Shown here one piece after another: positions 1 through 27,063 of a stretch of 33,508 bases of DNA. The position numbers and the translations under genes are program-made. The notes below the pieces were generated by a model. It was not told the origin of the DNA. It searched no databases and worked only from the letters and a program-made list of their open reading frames with translations. The DNA comes from a virus (lineage: Duplodnaviria; Heunggongvirae; Uroviricota; Caudoviricetes), in the IMG/VR virus record IMGVR_UViG_648276643_000011. The stretch is one strand, 5' to 3'. Position 1 is the first letter of the stretch, and the number at the start of each line of letters is the position of its first letter.

Positions 1-1002
1 TTACCCTCTATTGTCAAAAGGGTTCAATTCAACAGCAGCCTCTAAATGACCTGGAGCAAAATGCGCATAACGCATAGTCATTTTTATATCGCTATGCCCC
101 AGTATTTTTTGCAACACAAGAATATTTCCGCCCCGCATCATAAAATGACTGGCAAACGTGTGACGTAGCACATGAGTTAATTGCCCATCAGGAAGCTCGA
201 TCTTCGCTCTCTTAATTGCAGCGTCAAAAGCCTCATAACATGGTGAAAATAGCGCTCCTCGTTTTTTAGGAAGCATAGCTTGCAATTGAGGTGAAATCGG
301 TACAGTGCGGTTCTTCTTTCCTTTAGTTTTAACAAATGTGATTCGACCGGGCAGTACTTGAGATTGCTTTAATCCTTCTGCTTCACTCCACCGAGCACCA
401 GTCGCAAGCCCAATACGGACAACAACCCCCAAATCTTTATTCCGTGACTCATCACACGCAATCAGAAGGCGTTCAATCTCATCTACATACAGAAACGCCA
501 GTTCCTTTTCTTCCTCACGAAACTTGCGAATACCAGTCAGGGGGTTTTCACCAGACCACTCCCCAAGGCGCTTCAGTTCGGCAAAAACAGCATGTAGATA
601 TGACTGCTCGCGATTAACGGTTGCTTCACTAAGTTTTTTCTTCCCCTTGGGATTCCATTCTCCTGATAGCCTTCTTTCCCGATAAGTAGCAAACATATTT
701 TTGTCAAACTGAGAAGCAAATGGATCTCCCAGCCTGGAACAAATCGCCTCAAGTTTGACTTTGCGCTCTGCACCAGAGGACAAGGTTTTACCGTACATCT
801 CAAACCAACGAGCAATCAACTCAGAAAGACGAGGACCAGAACCATCTTGAAACTCGTCTCCAACTCTACTATTCATTAAACGGCGCTCATAAGAGAGCGC
901 CTCACTTTTTGTCGCAAACTGTTTACGAATGCGTTTTCCCGATGCCCCGTAGGGATAACATTCGCAAAGCCATTTACCTGATGGAATCTTACGAACCGAC
1001 AT
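1..1002 (-). CDS. int: Phage integrase, tyrosine recombinase (P2 Int-like)
   Basis: 333 aa ORF; C-terminal catalytic region with HxxR and terminal Tyr context (LRHTFASHFMMRGG ... MTMRYAHF) typical of tyrosine recombinases; alignable by eye to P2 Int; first gene at prophage end. Confidence 0.9.
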   Translation of the reverse strand: MSVRKIPSGKWLCECYPYGASGKRIRKQFATKSEALSYERRLMNSRVGDEFQDGSGPRLSELIARWFEMYGKTLSSGAERKVKLEAICSRLGDPFASQFDKNMFATYRERRLSGEWNPKGKKKLSEATVNREQSYLHAVFAELKRLGEWSGENPLTGIRKFREEEKELAFLYVDEIERLLIACDESRNKDLGVVVRIGLATGARWSEAEGLKQSQVLPGRITFVKTKGKKNRTVPISPQLQAMLPKKRGALFSPCYEAFDAAIKRAKIELPDGQLTHVLRHTFASHFMMRGGNILVLQKILGHSDIKMTMRYAHFAPGHLEAAVELNPFDNRG

Positions 1003-3339: not shown

Positions 3340-3619
3340 ATGACCAAAGAGCATGCACAAGGTGTATTTATCCGTTTTATTGATTTTCGCGGTGAACTGT
3401 TATTACGCGCATCAGCCATTGACGGAGTTGTTCCATCCGAAAAAAAACGCAGCTACTTACGTTTATCTGAACGGTACGCGCCTGACTGTGGAGCTTCCGT
3501 ACCAGACCGTACGAGAAATCATTAGCGAAGCTGAAAAGGCACGTCAGGTTAATGGCGATGAACCCTATATCGAAATTATTTGTATGGATTCAGAAGCTGA
3601 AATTCAGAAAGCAGATTAA
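3340..3619 (+). pseudogene. Hypothetical early gene split by a frameshift in an A8 homopolymer
   Basis: Protein-like N-terminal half in frame 1 (MTKEHAQGVFIRFIDFRGELLLRASAIDGVVPSEKK) and protein-like C-terminal half in frame 2 (NAATYVYLNGTRLTVELPYQTVREIISEAEKARQVNGDEPYIEIICMDSEAEIQKAD) join exactly at the A8 run 3440-3447; A7 would give one 93 aa ORF. Confidence 0.45.
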
Positions 3620-6275: not shown

Positions 6276-9098
6276 ATGACGGCAGAGTACATCAGGGACT
6301 GGCAACAACCGCGCCACGCAGTGGGGCGTGAAGGAACGGGGATCCCCGCTCCTGAATCTGCGCTTTCCTCCTGGCTGGATGCCTACCGGGCAGAGAACGA
6401 GCGCCGCCAGGAAATGGCTGATGCGGCGTTCTCCGCCACACCGCTGGGCAACCTGATTAATAAAAGCCTGGACGCACAGGAAAAACAGGACAAAGCCATC
6501 ACACTGGCAGGAGACGCCAGAAAACAGGCACGCGGCGCGGTGGATGAAGCCATGGCCTCGCTGCGCCTGCTGCCGTCCTATTTGCGCGATCCACTTATTC
6601 GTCACCTCTCCTTCCTGCGCAAAAAACAGGAAGCCGATCGCCGGAAAGGCAAAAAGAGCTGGCAGGCAGAACGCTATGCACGCGGAACCCTGCGCAAGAT
6701 ATTCGATCGCATAAACCGCACCGACAGCCGCTGGCTGACACCGGGTTATCGCTCCCTTGCCGGACGCGAACGCCTGGACGATTTGCTTTACCTGCCGCAG
6801 CTCAACAAGCACCAGATACAGACGCTGGCTACCATGACGGCGGCGATGTTCAGCAGCACCTTCGAAAAACTCTGCGATGGTTTTGGCGCGACCGATGGCG
6901 AGCTGACCATGGATGTAACCCTGAAGGCGTATCAGATGCTGGCCCGCATGGCGTTACACCTGCACGCCATGCCTCCACATTATGACGCACTGACAACAGA
7001 CAAAGACCGGAGGAACGAACCGGACACGGAGCTGCTGCCAGGCGCAATCCTTCGCCTGACCTGTGCGGAATGGTGGAAACGCAAACTGTGGCTGTTACGT
7101 TGTGAGTGGCGGGAAGAACAACTTCGCGCCGCCTGTCTGGTTTCCAGAAAAACATCGCCCTATCTGAGCCAGGACGCGTTAAGCGAGTTTCGCGCACAGC
7201 GCGAGAAAACACGCGATTTCCTGAAAAGTTTCATGCTGGAAAACGAAGACGGGTTCACGATTGATCTCGAGACAGTGTATTACGCGGGAGTAAGTAACCC
7301 GGTTCACCGTAAGGCAGAAATGATGGCCACCATGAAGGGGCTGGAACTTCTGGCCGAAGCCCGTGGCGACAAAGCGGTGTTTCTGACTGTCACCTGCCCG
7401 TCAAAATACCACGCCACAACAGAGAACGGTCATCCGAATCCCAAATGGAACGGGGCCACCATGCGCGACTCCAGCGATTACCTGGTTAACACGTTTTTTG
7501 CGGCGGTCCGCAAGAAACTGAACCGCGACGGCCTGCGCTGGTATGGCATCCGCACGGTGGAGCCTCACCATGACGGCACCGTGCACTGGCATATGATGGT
7601 CTTTGCTCATCCGGAAGAAATCGACACCATTGTGTCCCACACCCGTGATATTGCCATTCAGGAAGATCGTCACGAGCTGGGTGATGATATTACCCCACGC
7701 TTTAAGGCGGAGTACGTCGACGGCTCAAAAGGCACACCGACCAGCTACATCGCCACCTACATCGGGAAAAACCTGGACAGCCGTGCCGTGGATGGCATCG
7801 ACCCGAAAACGGGCAAGCCACGCGTTGACCACGAAACCGGAAAATCAATGGCCGAGAGCGTGGAACGCGCCATCGGCTGGGCGCGCCTTCACCGGGTCCG
7901 CCAGTTCCAGTTTTTTGGTATCCCCTCCCGTCAGGTGTGGCGTGAGCTGCGTCGCCTTGCCAGCCAGATGGCACGCAACCCGGAAGGCCCACAACGGCTG
8001 AAGGATGACGCAATGGATGCGGTTCTTGCTGCCGCTGATGCCGGATGTTTTGCCACCTACATAGAGAAACAGGGCGGCGTACTTGTTCCACGCAAGGACT
8101 ACCTGGTTCGCACCGCCTACGACCTCGCAGATGAACTGAATGATTACGGCGAACAGAGCGTACAGATTTACGGGATCTGGTCACCACTCATCGGGGAATC
8201 CTCTCGTGTGTGCACGCATCCGGATAACTGGAAGCTGGTAAGACGTAAACCGGAAACGGAAGACAGCGCCCGCGAAAATGGTTTTGACCTTCAGGGCGGC
8301 CCTGCCGCCCCTTGGACTCGTGGCAATAACTGTCCCCGTGTACAGGAAACGGACAACAACGGGACAGAACAGCCGGAAGAACGGCCAGCACCGTGGCCGC
8401 AGCTCCCTGACGGCGTTGAAGTGAACGAATGGATGCGCTCACTGAAACGGCACGAACGCCGGGCGCTGATGCGTTCGCTTCGTGACAAACAGGCAAAAAA
8501 CAGCAGTGATGAAATGCAGAGCTGGACACAGAGCCGCAAACAGCAGCGGCCTTTGCCTGATAACCACGAATTACTCGCTAAAGAATGGCGGGAGTCTGCT
8601 GAATCTCTCGGCCTGCATATCGGTGAACAACAGATGCAGCACCTGTTACGGGGCGGCAGTCTGTACGTTGACGGCAGCATCATTGCACCGCAGGGATTTG
8701 AAATTATACGCAAACCGGATACCCGCCCGGACAGCCGAATCACGCAGCTCTGGCAGCGCCTGAGCCGTAATCACGGCGTAAGCAGCACGGAGATCCGCCA
8801 TAACCCGGTCGCCAGCTATCTGGCACAGCTGGGGGCATCAGCCCCTGAAGCCGCCGCACGCCTGGCATCCACACTTCAGCAGGACCAGAACACCATGAAA
8901 ACACCCGTTACCGTGCTTTCTGACATGCTGCGCGCCATCCGCGACGCAGAGCACGCACAGAGAATCAGTGAAACCACTGAACGCGCCCGCCGCAAAGCAG
9001 ACCTGCTGCGGGGTGGCCTGACCAGTGGAAACAATAAACAGACAGAAACGGGACTCACGAATCCCGTAAATGAGCAAAAAACGCGCAGCGATATATGA
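6276..9098 (+). CDS. A: Replication initiation protein A (rolling-circle HUH endonuclease, P2 gpA family) with long C-terminal extension
   Basis: 940 aa; HUH-type motif VHWHMMVF and paired catalytic tyrosine motif TSYIATYIGKN as in P2 A; canonical position before the variable locus. Confidence 0.85.
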   Translation: MTAEYIRDWQQPRHAVGREGTGIPAPESALSSWLDAYRAENERRQEMADAAFSATPLGNLINKSLDAQEKQDKAITLAGDARKQARGAVDEAMASLRLLPSYLRDPLIRHLSFLRKKQEADRRKGKKSWQAERYARGTLRKIFDRINRTDSRWLTPGYRSLAGRERLDDLLYLPQLNKHQIQTLATMTAAMFSSTFEKLCDGFGATDGELTMDVTLKAYQMLARMALHLHAMPPHYDALTTDKDRRNEPDTELLPGAILRLTCAEWWKRKLWLLRCEWREEQLRAACLVSRKTSPYLSQDALSEFRAQREKTRDFLKSFMLENEDGFTIDLETVYYAGVSNPVHRKAEMMATMKGLELLAEARGDKAVFLTVTCPSKYHATTENGHPNPKWNGATMRDSSDYLVNTFFAAVRKKLNRDGLRWYGIRTVEPHHDGTVHWHMMVFAHPEEIDTIVSHTRDIAIQEDRHELGDDITPRFKAEYVDGSKGTPTSYIATYIGKNLDSRAVDGIDPKTGKPRVDHETGKSMAESVERAIGWARLHRVRQFQFFGIPSRQVWRELRRLASQMARNPEGPQRLKDDAMDAVLAAADAGCFATYIEKQGGVLVPRKDYLVRTAYDLADELNDYGEQSVQIYGIWSPLIGESSRVCTHPDNWKLVRRKPETEDSARENGFDLQGGPAAPWTRGNNCPRVQETDNNGTEQPEERPAPWPQLPDGVEVNEWMRSLKRHERRALMRSLRDKQAKNSSDEMQSWTQSRKQQRPLPDNHELLAKEWRESAESLGLHIGEQQMQHLLRGGSLYVDGSIIAPQGFEIIRKPDTRPDSRITQLWQRLSRNHGVSSTEIRHNPVASYLAQLGASAPEAAARLASTLQQDQNTMKTPVTVLSDMLRAIRDAEHAQRISETTERARRKADLLRGGLTSGNNKQTETGLTNPVNEQKTRSDI

Positions 9099-9174: not shown

Positions 9175-10134
9175 ATGAAAATTTGTATCGACGACGGCTC
9201 CACCAACATCAAGCTGGCATGGACTGAGAACGGCGAACGCCGCAACGCCATCAGCCCGAACAGCTTCAAGTCGGAATGGTCTGCGCCGTTCGGTGGCACG
9301 CAGCCCGCGAACTACATGCTTGATGGCGTGCGCTATGGTTTTGATCCTGTCAGCGATCGCTTTGTCCAGACGACCGACACGCAATACCAATACAGCGATG
9401 TGAATGTCATTGCCATTCATCACGCGCTGGTCAAATCAGGCATCACGCCACAGGAGGTGGATGTGGTTGTCACCCTGCCACTGAGCGAGTATTTCGACAC
9501 AAACGCACAGCCGGACATGGCCAACATCAACCGCAAAAAAGCGAACGTTATGCGCCCGGTGGAGTACCAGAACGGCAAAGCATTCACTATCCGTAACGTA
9601 CGGGTTATGCCTGAATCTATTCCGGCTGGCTTTAAAGCACTGGCTGACATGAGTCCGTTTGAATCCCTGCTGATTGTGGATTTAGGCGGAACCACGCTGG
9701 ATGTGGCAAAGGTTCAGGGACAACTGGCAGGTATCAGCCAGGTGTTTTGCGATCCACACGTAGGCGTTTCCCTGATGGCCGATGCAGTACTGTCGGTGAT
9801 GGCCACTAACGGTATGCGTACCAGTCACCACATCGCCAATACCATTATCGAACATCGCCATGATGAAGCTTGGCTGCGCCAGCACATCCACAATGACGCG
9901 CATTACGCCAGCCTGATGGCGGTTATTCGTGAAAAGGAAGAAACACTGAAACAACGCGTGATCCGCGCGCTGGCGGGTTTTTCGGGTTACGGGCGGGTGA
10001 TGGTTGTCGGTGGCGGAGCGGAGATTGTGGCACCCGCTATCCGCGAAGCCTGCGGGGTTAATGCGACTTTCATCGCGGACGGGGTGCCACAGTTTGCTCT
10101 GGTTAATGGGCTGTACGCAATGGACAAGGAGTAA
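9175..10134 (+). CDS. parM: ParM/StbA-family actin-like ATPase
   Basis: 319 aa; N-terminus MKICIDDGSTNIKLAW matches ParM phosphate-1 motif; further ParM-like blocks (YSDVNV.A.HHAL, MPESIPAG, LI.DLGGTTLD, GGGAE) alignable by eye to plasmid R1 ParM (from memory); RBS AAGGA. Confidence 0.8.
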   Translation: MKICIDDGSTNIKLAWTENGERRNAISPNSFKSEWSAPFGGTQPANYMLDGVRYGFDPVSDRFVQTTDTQYQYSDVNVIAIHHALVKSGITPQEVDVVVTLPLSEYFDTNAQPDMANINRKKANVMRPVEYQNGKAFTIRNVRVMPESIPAGFKALADMSPFESLLIVDLGGTTLDVAKVQGQLAGISQVFCDPHVGVSLMADAVLSVMATNGMRTSHHIANTIIEHRHDEAWLRQHIHNDAHYASLMAVIREKEETLKQRVIRALAGFSGYGRVMVVGGGAEIVAPAIREACGVNATFIADGVPQFALVNGLYAMDKE

Positions 10135-10138
10135 ACCA

Positions 10139-10450
10139 ATGACGACACCAACCAGACGGATAAGTTTCTATCTGAAGCCCGCCGCCGTCAAGAACGAAGG
10201 CGAAGCATGCGCCTGGCTGGACAGCCTTACACCAGAAGCCCGTAAAAACGGCCAACGCGTGGCTTTTCTGGCCGGGCTGGCGCTTCTGAAAATGAATCCG
10301 GCAGAGGCTTACCGACTGGCAGCATGGGCTGACGATGAGGCGTTATCAGTGACACAAACCAGGACAGAACGCCCCCTGTCACAGCCAGTACCAACCGCAC
10401 AGATAACCAGTCAGATGGCCGGAAATATCAGGGCGTTATTTCCTGAATAA
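10139..10450 (+). CDS. parR: ParR-like ribbon-helix-helix adaptor
   Basis: 103 aa starting 5 nt after the parM-like stop with RBS AAGGAG; N-terminal RRISFYLKP ... LDSLTPEARKNGQRVAFLAGLAL and C-terminal NIRALFPE resemble R1 ParR as recalled from memory. Confidence 0.6.
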   Translation: MTTPTRRISFYLKPAAVKNEGEACAWLDSLTPEARKNGQRVAFLAGLALLKMNPAEAYRLAAWADDEALSVTQTRTERPLSQPVPTAQITSQMAGNIRALFPE

Positions 10451-10457
10451 CACAACG

Positions 10458-10477
10458 TCAGGGCGAGTTCGCCCTGA
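10458..10477 (+). other. GC-rich perfect hairpin (TCAGGGCGA-GT-TCGCCCTGA) downstream of the parR-like gene
   Basis: 9 bp perfect inverted repeat 8 nt after the stop codon; no U-tract, so a stability element or protein site rather than a classic intrinsic terminator. Confidence 0.4.
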
Positions 10478-10513
10478 TCTCCATCTCAGAACATAAACAA
10501 GAAGAGCGACTTA

Positions 10514-10762
10514 ATGAGCAAAATCAACTATCAGGCATTACGTGAACGTTATTCACCTGCACCAGTACCAAAATGCCCTATTTGCGGCGAAGAAATGTCA
10601 ATTCAGCGAATATCTGGAGCACAGGTTGTTTATGCCTGCTCCAGTTATGGTGATGATGGAGATTTCAAAGTTGGTCGAACTCTTGTCGACGAACATTATG
10701 AAAAATCACGCGTAACAGTGTTGGATGTCGGGGCCCCTGAAGTATTGGCGCTACTTGATTGA
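10514..10762 (+). CDS. Small putative zinc-binding protein; frame stays open past its TGA stop
   Basis: 82 aa with CPICG ... YAC cysteine pattern; the same frame continues for 45 sense codons after the TGA at 10760-10762, with no conventional start codon in that extension. Confidence 0.45.
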   Translation: MSKINYQALRERYSPAPVPKCPICGEEMSIQRISGAQVVYACSSYGDDGDFKVGRTLVDEHYEKSRVTVLDVGAPEVLALLD

Positions 10763-10987
10763 CTGGAAACCAAAGACAACCGAATCACTGAACTGGAAAA
10801 AATCGCCACTGACTATGCACTTAAATTCCAGAAAGCACAGGACGCATTAAAGTACGCCGCTTTGCTGCATAGCAGGACAGCGCAGCTAAAATACTAACTT
10901 AAAGCGGAAGATTAATACATGGTGAGTCGGGGTAATTTGTTTTTATCCCGACAAATAAACAAAAAAGTGGACTATCTCTGTAGTATC

Positions 10988-11518
10988 TTATTCAGCATCG
11001 TCTCGTGCAGTCTGTGCATACGTCACAACAACGCCCAATGCATTAGTTTTCTTTTCAACATAGATAATATTGTCATATTCATAGTTACCATACGGATAGC
11101 AAATAAGAATATTTTTATGCAGTTCGGGATCATCAACAAACGCTCCGGAACAGCTTCTTGAACTACCAGATGTATACTCATACGGTGCAACATATGATGA
11201 TGTTACTCCTGGTAAAAAATAAGTCACCATCATAAGAGGGATAATCAGGAATATCCCTGTAAGAATGCAAGAGCCAGCATAAACCTTCAGGTATTCCGAC
11301 AGTCCTTTCCAGCCACTTTGCTTCACTACCCCCCTCTTCACCAGAAACAAGGAGAAGAAAAAGGACATACCCATACTACACAAGATGTAATAATTGGATA
11401 TACGCGAATTAAGATATGTAATCCTGTAGATATCTGCCCTCCACCAGTAAAAGAGGAAAATAATCCCTAGCACTGAAACAGTCATGCAAATCAAATAAGG
11501 ATATGAATCTTTCTTCAT
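10988..11518 (-). CDS. AT-rich integral membrane protein (3 predicted TM helices plus soluble C-terminal domain), candidate lysogenic-conversion or exclusion gene
   Basis: 176 aa on the strand opposite the flanking early genes; hydrophobic segments about 10-26, 44-59 and 79-105; lowest-GC segment in the window; at the P2 tin/old position. Confidence 0.55.
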   Translation of the reverse strand: MKKDSYPYLICMTVSVLGIIFLFYWWRADIYRITYLNSRISNYYILCSMGMSFFFSLFLVKRGVVKQSGWKGLSEYLKVYAGSCILTGIFLIIPLMMVTYFLPGVTSSYVAPYEYTSGSSRSCSGAFVDDPELHKNILICYPYGNYEYDNIIYVEKKTNALGVVVTYAQTARDDAE

Positions 11519-11590
11519 GTCTTGCGCTCATTAAAATTTCCCTGCTACGAACAAATTTACCATCCGTTTTTTGCGCAGAAAACAGCACGA

Positions 11591-11623
11591 TGCACACTGC
11601 ACGATAGTGCACAAATTTGCACA
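11591..11623. repeat. Four phased TGCAC(A/G) repeats upstream of the membrane-protein gene
   Basis: TGCACA 11591, TGCACG 11599, TGCACA 11608, TGCACA 11618, spaced 8-10 bp; 70-105 bp upstream of the minus-strand start at 11518. Confidence 0.35.
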
Positions 11624-11998
11624 ATTTTTTTGAACGACTTTTTACCCTTCCGCCCCGCATGGCGGCTGGATCCGTCAAGGATCCGTGCGTGCACAAAAAA
11701 AAGCGTTTTTTCTGCGCGCAGGTGACGGGGGAACAGCCCGCGTTTCAGGGGGTAAATAGCATTCCCTGAGCGATGTCGCAGCGACACAACAGAATGGCTG
11801 TATTTCTCACGCTGAGCGTGAAAAAGACGTGAGGGCTTTTGATTTGATGGGGTAACAGATAAGGCCGCCAAAATCGCACTGAGGCGGCAGGAACATGCAG
11901 TCAACGCGGTGGGATTGCGTAAGAGTCTGACCGTCGATGATGGCAATAAGCTGGAAGGCGTCGTGAAATTATCTGATTGATACAGGAGCTGGAGAGTC

Positions 11999-12021
11999 GG
12001 GGCATAAATTTTTTATGCCCC
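11999..12021. terminator. Perfect 10 bp stem hairpin (GGGGCATAAA-TTT-TTTATGCCCC) just 3' of portal gene Q; possible terminator or part of cos region
   Basis: Perfect palindrome 27 bp downstream of the Q stop codon; a cos-like segment (GAGGCGGCAGGAA) lies at about 11880-11893 but could not be aligned confidently to P2/186 cos from memory. Confidence 0.35.
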
Positions 12022-12048
12022 GGCGAAGCAGCAGACAAGCGAAGCGCG

Positions 12049-13095
12049 TCAGGCTGTGGGCTGAGTGTCTAACAGTGCGTAAGGGTTAAAGCGGATCACC
12101 TCTTCGCCCAGCCAGTCATTGATGTGCTTCATGGCCTCCATGACGGGCATCAGCTCATTAATTGCGTAAACCCGCGCGGCCTTCTCCACATCACCAAACG
12201 CACTTTTTTCGCCCGGCATCGCCCCCATCAGTTGCGGTGGAACGCGGTGCGCAGCCAGCACATCATCACGGGATGCCGCCTTAACATTCATGAACTCATC
12301 CTTTGCGGTGATCTGCTGGAACGGCAAAATTTGCACCCCTTCTTTGCCCCCGTTGGGCGCATGAATGAGCACGTTTTTAAACGCACCACCACCACGTGCC
12401 CCCTGTAGCGTTTCTTTCAGTGAGTCCATGCTTTCGCGGTTTACCTGCGCTGCACCGATGTAGATGATGCACCCGGCGTGGGAGCCGTTGTCGTAGTACA
12501 GTTTTCTGAACATGTCCGCCGAATGAGACAGGCTGGCCGAGAGTAATGCACCAAGATATTCCGGCATGCCGTAGATTTCCTGGTTAATATCCGGATTCAT
12601 CAGGTGGCACACTTTGCCAGGGCGAAACTGAAACGCGTCCTTACCATCCTGCACATACCACCATGATTCAAGATCGCTTCCGCGTCGCATGTATTTCGCC
12701 AGGGCGTGCCGTAATTTAAGCGGTTCGCCGAGCATATTGCTTCGAAGCTCAAGGAATGCGTTACCGAACACAAACCAGTCCAGCGCCAGCGCCGAGAAAT
12801 CCTGCCGGGAAAGCAGCGGGTGCGGGATGTAGCAACCGAGTAATACATTGCGCTTAAAGTAAAGCGCAGATTGATGCCAGGACGTTTGCCGGGCAGCTCT
12901 TGCCAGACCGTACCAGTCCACCGGGGTTTCATACCACCGCCCGTTATCAGCACAGTACATATTGTCCAGCAGGTCATGCCCGGTCAGGCGGTAAGGACCA
13001 TCAAATGTGAATGCACTGAGCGATGATTCTTTCCTGAGCGCATCAGCGAGATCAATGCGTGAACTCATGCGCACTTTTTTATTTTTTCTGCTCAT
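12049..13095 (-). CDS. Q: Portal protein (P2 gpQ)
   Basis: 348 aa; position and orientation (divergent from O, downstream of P) and by-eye similarity to P2 Q. Confidence 0.9.
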   Translation of the reverse strand: MSRKNKKVRMSSRIDLADALRKESSLSAFTFDGPYRLTGHDLLDNMYCADNGRWYETPVDWYGLARAARQTSWHQSALYFKRNVLLGCYIPHPLLSRQDFSALALDWFVFGNAFLELRSNMLGEPLKLRHALAKYMRRGSDLESWWYVQDGKDAFQFRPGKVCHLMNPDINQEIYGMPEYLGALLSASLSHSADMFRKLYYDNGSHAGCIIYIGAAQVNRESMDSLKETLQGARGGGAFKNVLIHAPNGGKEGVQILPFQQITAKDEFMNVKAASRDDVLAAHRVPPQLMGAMPGEKSAFGDVEKAARVYAINELMPVMEAMKHINDWLGEEVIRFNPYALLDTQPTA

Positions 13096-25919: not shown

Positions 25920-26536
25920 TGGCATTCAGAATGAGTGAACAATCACGTACTGTAAAAATTTATAACCTGCTGGCCGGAACTAATGAGTTTATTGGTGAAG
26001 GTGACGCATATATTCCACCTCATACAGGGCTGCCAGCCAATTCTACAGATATCGCCCCACCGGAAATTCCTGCTGGCTTTGTGGCAGTTTTTAACAGTGA
26101 AAATGAATCGTGGAATATTGTTGAAGACCATCGTGGTAAAACGGTCTATGACGTGGCATCGGGGGACGCGTTGTTTATTTCTGAACCCGGACCGCTACCA
26201 GAGAATGTCACCTGGTTGTCGCCAGCAGGGGAGTATCAGAAGTGGGACGGCGTATCCTGGGTGAAGGATGAGGAAGCAGAAAAACTGTTTCGGATACGGG
26301 AAGCGGAAGAGAAAAAGGCAAGGTTGATCCAGGAAGCAACAGATAACATCGCAATTCTGCAGGATGCAGTTAATCTTGAAATAGCAACAAACGAGGAAAA
26401 TTCACAACTGGATTCCTGGAGAAAATACAGAGTATTAGTGAGTAGAATTGACACCAGTACAGCTCCGGATATCGTATGGCCAGAGCTGATGAATCAGGGT
26501 TATGTGCGGGAGGACGAGCAGATAACTTCAGACTGA
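25919..26536 (+). CDS. G: Tail fibre assembly chaperone (gpG-like)
   Basis: 205 aa; ATG overlaps H stop (TAATG); position after H. Confidence 0.8.
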
Positions 26537-27063
26537 AATTTAGTGATGAATGTTGAATCATCTGGAATATCATGCAATACCAATGCATGAGCACCTATTG
26601 TGACATTGTTTCCTATACGCACTTTGCCACCAAGAATGGTGGCATTACAACCAATGGTCACATTATGTCCTATAACAATATCCATATCATTAAAATCACC
26701 ACGCAGCCCAATAGTTACCCCTGGTTTTATTGAACAATTTTCACCGATTGTTACTTTGTGACCGATAACAACACTGTTGAGATAAGAAATATCAAAGCCT
26801 TTCCCTATATTTACAGTTAAAGGGACTGTTACATTATATTTATCAAGAATGAAACGTTCTATTTTCCCCGCAATCTTCCGACAGTATCCGCCTTTATCAA
26901 AAAGGTATTTGGCTATGCGCCACCAAAATAAATAACGAACTCTTCTATGTTTTATTGCGCGAACAATTGCCTTTCGCCAGGAGAAAGGACGCTCGCTACC
27001 GATTACTTCATAGTGAATACAATCTTTAAGTTCATTAATATTCATATCTCTATTATTCAGCAT
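26500..27063 (-). CDS. Hexapeptide-repeat (left-handed beta-helix) acyl/acetyltransferase at the Z/fun variable locus
   Basis: 187 aa; consecutive hexapeptide repeats [21 protein letters not shown] ... [34 protein letters not shown]; about 35 percent GC; convergently overlaps the 3' end of G by 37 bp. Confidence 0.75.

Follow-up and report, generated by a model that had tools for sequence, protein, structure and literature searches.

Prophage context of the locus

The window, i.e., the whole stretch of 33,508 nucleotides of DNA analysed here, is recognisable by sequence as a P88-like E. coli prophage of the P2 family (Xuanwuvirus), with its first 25 kb 100% identical to prophages in the complete genomes of E. 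coli 631, E5, and FCI1, and with Xuanwuvirus P88_4B11 (Peduoviridae) as the nearest named phage. The RefSeq annotation of E5 describes an otherwise intact P2-family prophage that adjoins yecA and displays the order integrase, regulatory region, gpA-type endonuclease, ParM, ParR-like protein, the open reading frame (ORF) under study, a minus-strand hypothetical gene, portal, terminase, capsid, lysis, and tail. The ORF is located in the segment between gpA and gpQ, a hotspot at which the gene content of P2-like phages is documented to vary (PMC9122126). The features of this segment comprise, in window positions:

6276-9098, plus strand: gpA-type replication endonuclease (PGAP annotation of the identical E5 sequence)
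9175-10134, plus strand: ParM (PGAP annotation of the identical E5 sequence)
10139-10450, plus strand: ParR-like partition protein (PGAP annotation of the identical E5 sequence)
10514-10762, plus strand: 82-codon ORF and its TGA stop (ORF list and translation; PF13935, PHROG 368, and PGAP)
10760-10762, plus strand: premature TGA, from TGG (Trp83) (alignment with 14EC020 and P88_4B11; 51-mer counts; metagenome loci)
10763-10884, plus strand: codons 84-124 as an untranslated, still in-frame remnant covering the beginning of the family's coiled coil (Pfam, nucleotide identity, and protein alignment)
10885-10897, plus strand: end of the frame, codons 125-127 (LKY) and TAA, derived from a cassette (homology to the full-length architecture stops at 10884)
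10885-11596, no strand assigned: 712-bp cassette in place of 258 ancestral bp, among them the last 72 ead codons (BLAST against E2865)
10988-11518, minus strand: 176-residue hydrophobic ORF in the cassette, convergent with the ead remnant (ORF list)
12049-13095, minus strand: portal protein (gpQ), on the far side of the gpA-gpQ hotspot (PGAP annotation)

Several observations concern the surroundings of the ORF. A plasmid-type partition module, ParM/ParR (9175-10450, plus strand), lies between the replication endonuclease and the hotspot cargo of this integrated prophage, and is conserved in P88-like phages. The gap separating the ParR-like gene from the ead remnant contains a perfect 8-bp hairpin rich in GC (10458-10477, TCAGGGCG-AGTT-CGCCCTGA), which a scan scored as terminator-like for the minus strand alone; this hairpin could set transcription units apart or bind a protein. 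A consensus scan of positions 10100-12100 returned no sigma-70-like site at all, and is uninformative as to a promoter belonging to the ORF or to the segment past its stop.

Elsewhere in the prophage, PGAP flags another small hypothetical gene, which belongs to the early region (3340-3619, plus strand), as frameshifted in the identical E5 prophage. That prophage comprises only three pseudogenes, all of them accessory, with every structural and replication gene intact. Directly after the tail fibre assembly gene, on the opposite strand, a gene for an LbetaH (hexapeptide-repeat, acetyltransferase-like) protein (26500-27045, minus strand) occupies a typical moron position and is possibly a surface-modification gene. 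In addition, the prophage lies between yecA and a second gene for a "YecA family protein" (window 1-1002, minus strand; 1-644 and 35476-35508 of locus L011), an arrangement suggesting that the prophage inserted at yecA or inside it and that the end of the gene was duplicated or replaced.

The open frame past the stop and the Ead/Ea22 family

The ORF starts at an ATG, and its 82-residue translation ends in ...APEVLALLD at the TGA of 10760-10762, which is followed by C. The initial annotation had proposed that the same frame stays open past this stop, and translation of 10514-10900 agrees, disclosing 44 sense codons (LETKDNRITELEKIATDYALKFQKAQDALKYAALLHSRTAQLKY) ahead of a TAA at 10895-10897. 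The extension had been given as 45 codons, a count reached only with the TAA included, and the read-through product as 128 residues, where translation gives 127 (82 + 1 + 44). The stretch past the stop had further been described as devoid of a conventional start codon; it contains neither ATG nor GTG in frame, and its sole in-frame alternative start is a TTG located 11 codons from the end. The length of the open frame is not, by itself, beyond chance: among the inter-stop intervals of the whole window, taken over its six frames, 16.8% reach at least 44 codons, and the chance estimate for 44 stop-free codons, (61/64)^44, is 0.12. The post-stop frame is nevertheless counted here as a real feature, because homology, and not length, supports it.

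This homology is to the Ead/Ea22 family. The 82-residue ORF matches Pfam PF13935 (Ead_Ea22) with 64.8 bits (E = 1.7e-17, profile positions 1-74 of 139), compared with a curated gathering threshold of 27 bits for family membership, and the PHROG 368 match agrees with the assignment. The 44 residues past the stop match profile positions 76-111, whereas an uninterrupted 127-residue relative scores 102.7 bits over positions 1-111 and the intact 196-residue relative 113 bits over positions 1-134. One domain model thereby spans the TGA without a break.

Ea22 proteins comprise (i) a short N-terminal domain, (ii) a coiled coil, and (iii) a variable C-terminal domain (PMC10834534, PMC7093339), and Ea22 of lambda and Stx phages is a pro-lysogenic protein encoded in the exo-xis region (PMC7093339). 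The intact P88-type relative preserves this three-part layout. The window copy does not display the architecture described for the family (PMC10834534): the coiled coil is cut, since the TGA ends translation first and homology then breaks off at 10884, and the C-terminal domain is absent. Judged by this comparison, the window copy is a remnant of an Ead/Ea22 family member and not an intact member, and the part that is still translatable corresponds to the N-terminal Cys/His-containing module of an ead/Ea22-like protein. Important differences from the known systems concern both location and integrity. [quoted passage not shown]

The N-terminal module displays 51-57% identity to ES18 gp41, ST64B Sb32, and phage D6 orf92. 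Residues C21 and C24, which form a C21-x2-C24 knuckle, together with C42 and H61, are invariant or nearly so among homologues. A zinc ribbon is defined by a pair of zinc knuckles on beta-hairpins, with four Cys/His ligands. Matches to zinc-ribbon Pfam families are sub-threshold (E = 0.008-0.03); a zinc-ribbon-like label for the module is plausible. A PDB sequence search found no relative, and AlphaFold2 on a 13-sequence alignment gave a model with a mean pLDDT of 55.7, a confidence insufficient for searching by fold. In the intact 196-residue relative, the C-terminal domain matched no Pfam family besides PF13935 and no PDB relative by sequence. In a search for a defence function that covered the ORF, its intact relative, and the ORF of the cassette, PADLOC returned no match, and the NCBIfam matches, to zinc-finger or topoisomerase families, were all sub-threshold.

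Replacement of the 3' end and the stop at codon 83

The intact orthologue comprises 196 codons and is represented by gp56 of P88_4B11 (YP_009877445.1) and by E. coli WP_001289969.1, the form found also in E. coli E2865; both occupy the same position after ParM/ParR as the window ORF. It shares ~95% nucleotide identity with window positions 10400-10884, and differs by a TGG at codon 83 and by 72 extra C-terminal codons, which a cassette replaces in the window. BLAST of the window against E2865 aligns only 10400-10884 and 11597-12100, delimiting the 712-bp cassette. The 127-codon frame is itself a truncated remnant of the 196-codon gene. Of the complete genomes, 77 carry the cassette at ≥95% identity, and 83 others carry it at ~78% identity at another chromosomal locus. 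The 127-codon cassette state is common to many E. coli prophages, and most cassette-bearing relatives keep the truncated frame intact; this intermediate is taken to be non-functional from the PGAP criterion and from scattered private nonsynonymous changes only. PGAP labels the identical E5 sequence as an ead/Ea22-like family protein with "internal stop; incomplete; missing C-terminus", and gives the TGG-bearing cassette form the same label minus "internal stop". Since the TGG cassette form already lacks the C-terminus, the C-terminal replacement came first and the nonsense mutation second.

The 176-residue ORF of the cassette shares 79% identity, without gaps and over all 176 residues, with WP_000711110.1 of E. 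coli D6, a protein encoded near dsdC/torI in 83 other E. coli genomes, and has no significant Pfam or PADLOC match. PGAP annotates it as frameshifted (576 nt) in E5, whereas the RM13322 copy (WP_000711113.1) is annotated as intact; the frameshift flag may be wrong, and the ORF an intact moron gene. In pig ETEC/O139 strains an IS1 is inserted inside the cassette (locus L026, E. coli O139:H1 P15-25, 828-1522, corresponding approximately to window position 10930) and truncates this ORF, which further indicates that disruption is tolerated at this spot. The same IS1 was considered as a lesion of the ead remnant and rejected, its annotated position being downstream, within the cassette.

At codon 83 the nearest relatives carry a sense codon. 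TGG (Trp83) is found in E. coli 14EC020, which is 98.2% identical to the window across 561 nt, in phage P88_4B11, and in E2865, RM8352, and M8; in short, a sense codon (TGG) occupies the position in all checked relatives without the TGA allele, and homology continues past the stop. Counting of the 51-mer centred on codon 83 in complete E. coli genomes (n = 5426) gave TGG in 207 and TGA in 3, i.e., TGA in 3/210 of the complete genomes with this allele family. Over 25 kb, the prophages of these three genomes match the window with 100% identity; within complete genomes, TGA therefore represents a single lineage. An IUPAC scan of a metagenome collection, accepting either base, recovered nine loci, all nine with G (TGG). 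The more distant ES18 gp41, ST64B Sb32, and D6 orf92 display Glu at the corresponding position. The initial annotation had named homologues that end at the same position as the outcome refuting its reading; none ends there, and every one runs past ...LLD into the coiled coil. Because near relatives read TGG and homologues continue, the window carries a derived G-to-A nonsense change at 10762, and the first of the alternatives put forward initially, a recent nonsense mutation, is the one upheld.

Single-base errors are able to create stop codons, and a false stop from sequencing or assembly was considered on that ground; it is exceedingly improbable, and was rejected, given that three complete genomes, each sequenced independently and differing in host and country of origin, display the identical base, as do numerous draft and metagenome contigs.

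The exchange of TGG for TGA at codon 83 is shared by at least three diverged P88-like prophage backgrounds, (i) the window type, (ii) the type of locus L017, and (iii) locus L021, which differ from one another by 39-66 substitutions over 1710 nt of parM-parR-ead. In L021, from a Logan assembly, the TGA lies within the full-length 196-codon architecture, in a locus free of the cassette. Among the protein variants, P0001 (loci L017-L020) has A58V and the TGA in common with the window and adds A79V of its own, lacking the other changes of the window, while P0031 equals the window type plus T56N. Mosaicism is visible in the region, and the gene family is modular, recombining at the junction between N-terminal module and coiled coil; the shared TGA may reflect either recurrent mutation or short-patch recombination. 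A Dcm (CCWGG) deamination hotspot was rejected as the source of recurrence, because the sequence around the change (reverse strand CCAGCCAA) does not constitute a Dcm site. The exact 82-residue product is recorded on 297 contigs of a large public collection, so the TGA-carrying lineage is not rare in absolute terms, although this number may reflect heavy sampling of one clone.

A further 82-residue variant, P0040 (12 contigs), was considered as a set of many independent stops and rejected: among the 4 of its 12 contigs listed, three end at that base, and L021 is the only listed one with a verified internal TGA. Several short-read contigs (L022, L023, and L024) end exactly at ...CTTGATTG (equivalent to window position 10761), one base before the polymorphic A/G, which suggests an assembly-graph branch produced by two prophage variants in one sample. 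Such contig ends give rise to spurious 82-residue "partial" proteins, such as P0040, in databases.

Substitutions and further lesions point to decay. Compared with ten relatives, the window lineage displays six private codon changes, G44S, I53V, A58V, D74A (two bases), W83stop, and A92T, none of them synonymous. Substitutions private to the TGA lineages amount to seven nonsynonymous (G44S, I53V, D74A, A92T, A79V, T56N, and A98T) and no synonymous ones, five inside the retained 82 codons and two (A92T and A98T) downstream of the stop. This 7:0 ratio has P ~0.13 under neutrality and ~0.001 if omega = 0.2; it fits relaxed constraint and fits purifying selection poorly, and with so small a count it is suggestive. 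Other lineages are damaged independently of the TGA: E. coli RM13322 and two food-metagenome contigs carry a 1-nt deletion at codon 73, and P0030 is a further frameshift variant of the same remnant. In addition, some cassette-bearing copies have private changes that are nonsynonymous, one of which, G25C, falls in the CxxC motif. The marks of decay thus comprise the replacement of 72 C-terminal codons, the 7:0 substitutions, and the independent frameshifts elsewhere.

Pseudogenisation, read-through, and truncation

The feature is very probably a doubly damaged pseudogene remnant of an accessory Ead/Ea22 prophage gene, and not a case of programmed read-through. The 712-bp cassette swapped out the 3' end of the 196-codon gene, leaving the 127-codon frame, and a G-to-A transition at 10762 subsequently converted Trp83 (TGG) into TGA. 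Both lesions, their order, and their distribution are documented at the level of sequence comparison. The protein-like appearance of the post-stop frame reflects coding in the recent past, with too little time since then for further stops to accumulate. Translation would be expected to end at the TGA and to yield, at most, the 82-residue N-terminal module; any extension would reflect the basal, unprogrammed leakiness of UGA, and the restoration of the ancestral Trp by near-cognate tRNA-Trp would be coincidental. We infer that the remnant is without function and that read-through is negligible; a trace 127-residue product is conceivable, and would be incidental. That the sequence is a pseudogene is already known from the RefSeq (PGAP) annotation of the identical sequence, and is confirmed here.

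The initial annotation had also offered programmed TGA read-through and recoding, and neither was sustained. A functional read-through would yield an abundant 82-residue N-terminal domain and a minor 127-residue form, in the manner of the coat protein and A1 of phage Q-beta. UGA-C counts as a rather weak termination signal in E. coli, near-cognate decoding of UGA by tRNA-Trp inserts Trp and would here give back the ancestral residue, and the downstream frame is open in each TGA-bearing sequence seen. The window ORF resembles coat/A1 in having a UGA stop followed by an open in-frame extension; in Q-beta, however, both stop and extension are conserved and the longer product is indispensable, whereas the window stop is a rare derived allele and the extension a remnant of an ancestral ORF. 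Among homologues with the extension the stop is indeed not conserved, being absent from 207 of the 210 complete genomes and from all nine metagenome loci, with Glu in distant homologues. The sequence downstream did not evolve for read-through, since TGG alleles carry the same sequence, and both post-stop substitutions of the TGA lineages (A92T and A98T) are nonsynonymous. RNA folding of the 106 nt from the stop (10755-10860) gave a minimum free energy of -8.6 kcal/mol against -12.9 kcal/mol for shuffled controls (z = +1.54); because this segment folds less stably than the shuffles, neither a stimulatory structure nor a SECIS-like hairpin is found there. TGA-C, moreover, ends five other ordinary genes of this prophage, and programmed read-through is accordingly rated as very unlikely. 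Recoding of the TGA as selenocysteine, or as Trp under a variant code, has next to no chance of being correct: TGA serves both kinds of recoding elsewhere, but the host is E. coli, homologues display Trp or Glu at codon 83 and not Cys, and no hairpin occupies the bacterial SECIS position after the codon. A variant genetic code is excluded because TGA is the commonest stop of the prophage, ending 23 of its 45 annotated genes, none of which contains an internal stop.

An adaptive truncation, in which the nonsense mutation was selected because a free 82-residue module or the loss of the coiled coil benefits the lysogen, is decidedly unlikely. It draws on the position of the TGA, which the protein alignment places exactly where the conserved N-terminal module gives way to the coiled coil (...LLD|coiled coil), on its presence on three separate backgrounds, on the 297 contigs with the exact product, and on a modular family in which recombination takes place at this very junction. 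The 82-residue fragment might still fold and act, and the several TGA backgrounds leave some room for selection towards truncation. Yet TGG is one step from a stop by only two routes, so that recurrence is expected across many thousands of sampled genomes; short-patch recombination also accounts for the sharing, and heavy sampling of a single clone may account for the contigs. The five nonsynonymous and zero synonymous private changes within the retained 82 codons argue against constraint, and the codon-73 disruptions of other lineages destroy the end of the N-terminal module as well. A related scenario, in which a favoured TGA recurs or spreads by recombination and lysogens make mainly the free 82-residue module plus, through the leakiness of UGA-C, a trickle of the Trp-restored longer protein, is a long shot; if true, the favoured TGA would act in P2-family prophages as a switch in the stoichiometry of an Ea22-type lysogeny factor.

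As a doubly damaged pseudogene remnant, the locus is an ordinary decaying accessory gene, and the finding matters little in itself. It provides a case example in which a protein-like frame after a stop, in the accessory region of a prophage, is best explained by recent pseudogenisation. It also illustrates that the gpA-gpQ hotspot of P88-like prophages swaps cassettes at the cost of the 3' end of a neighbouring gene, and that ead/Ea22-like genes are often disabled in E. coli lysogens, which suggests that these genes are dispensable for prophage maintenance.
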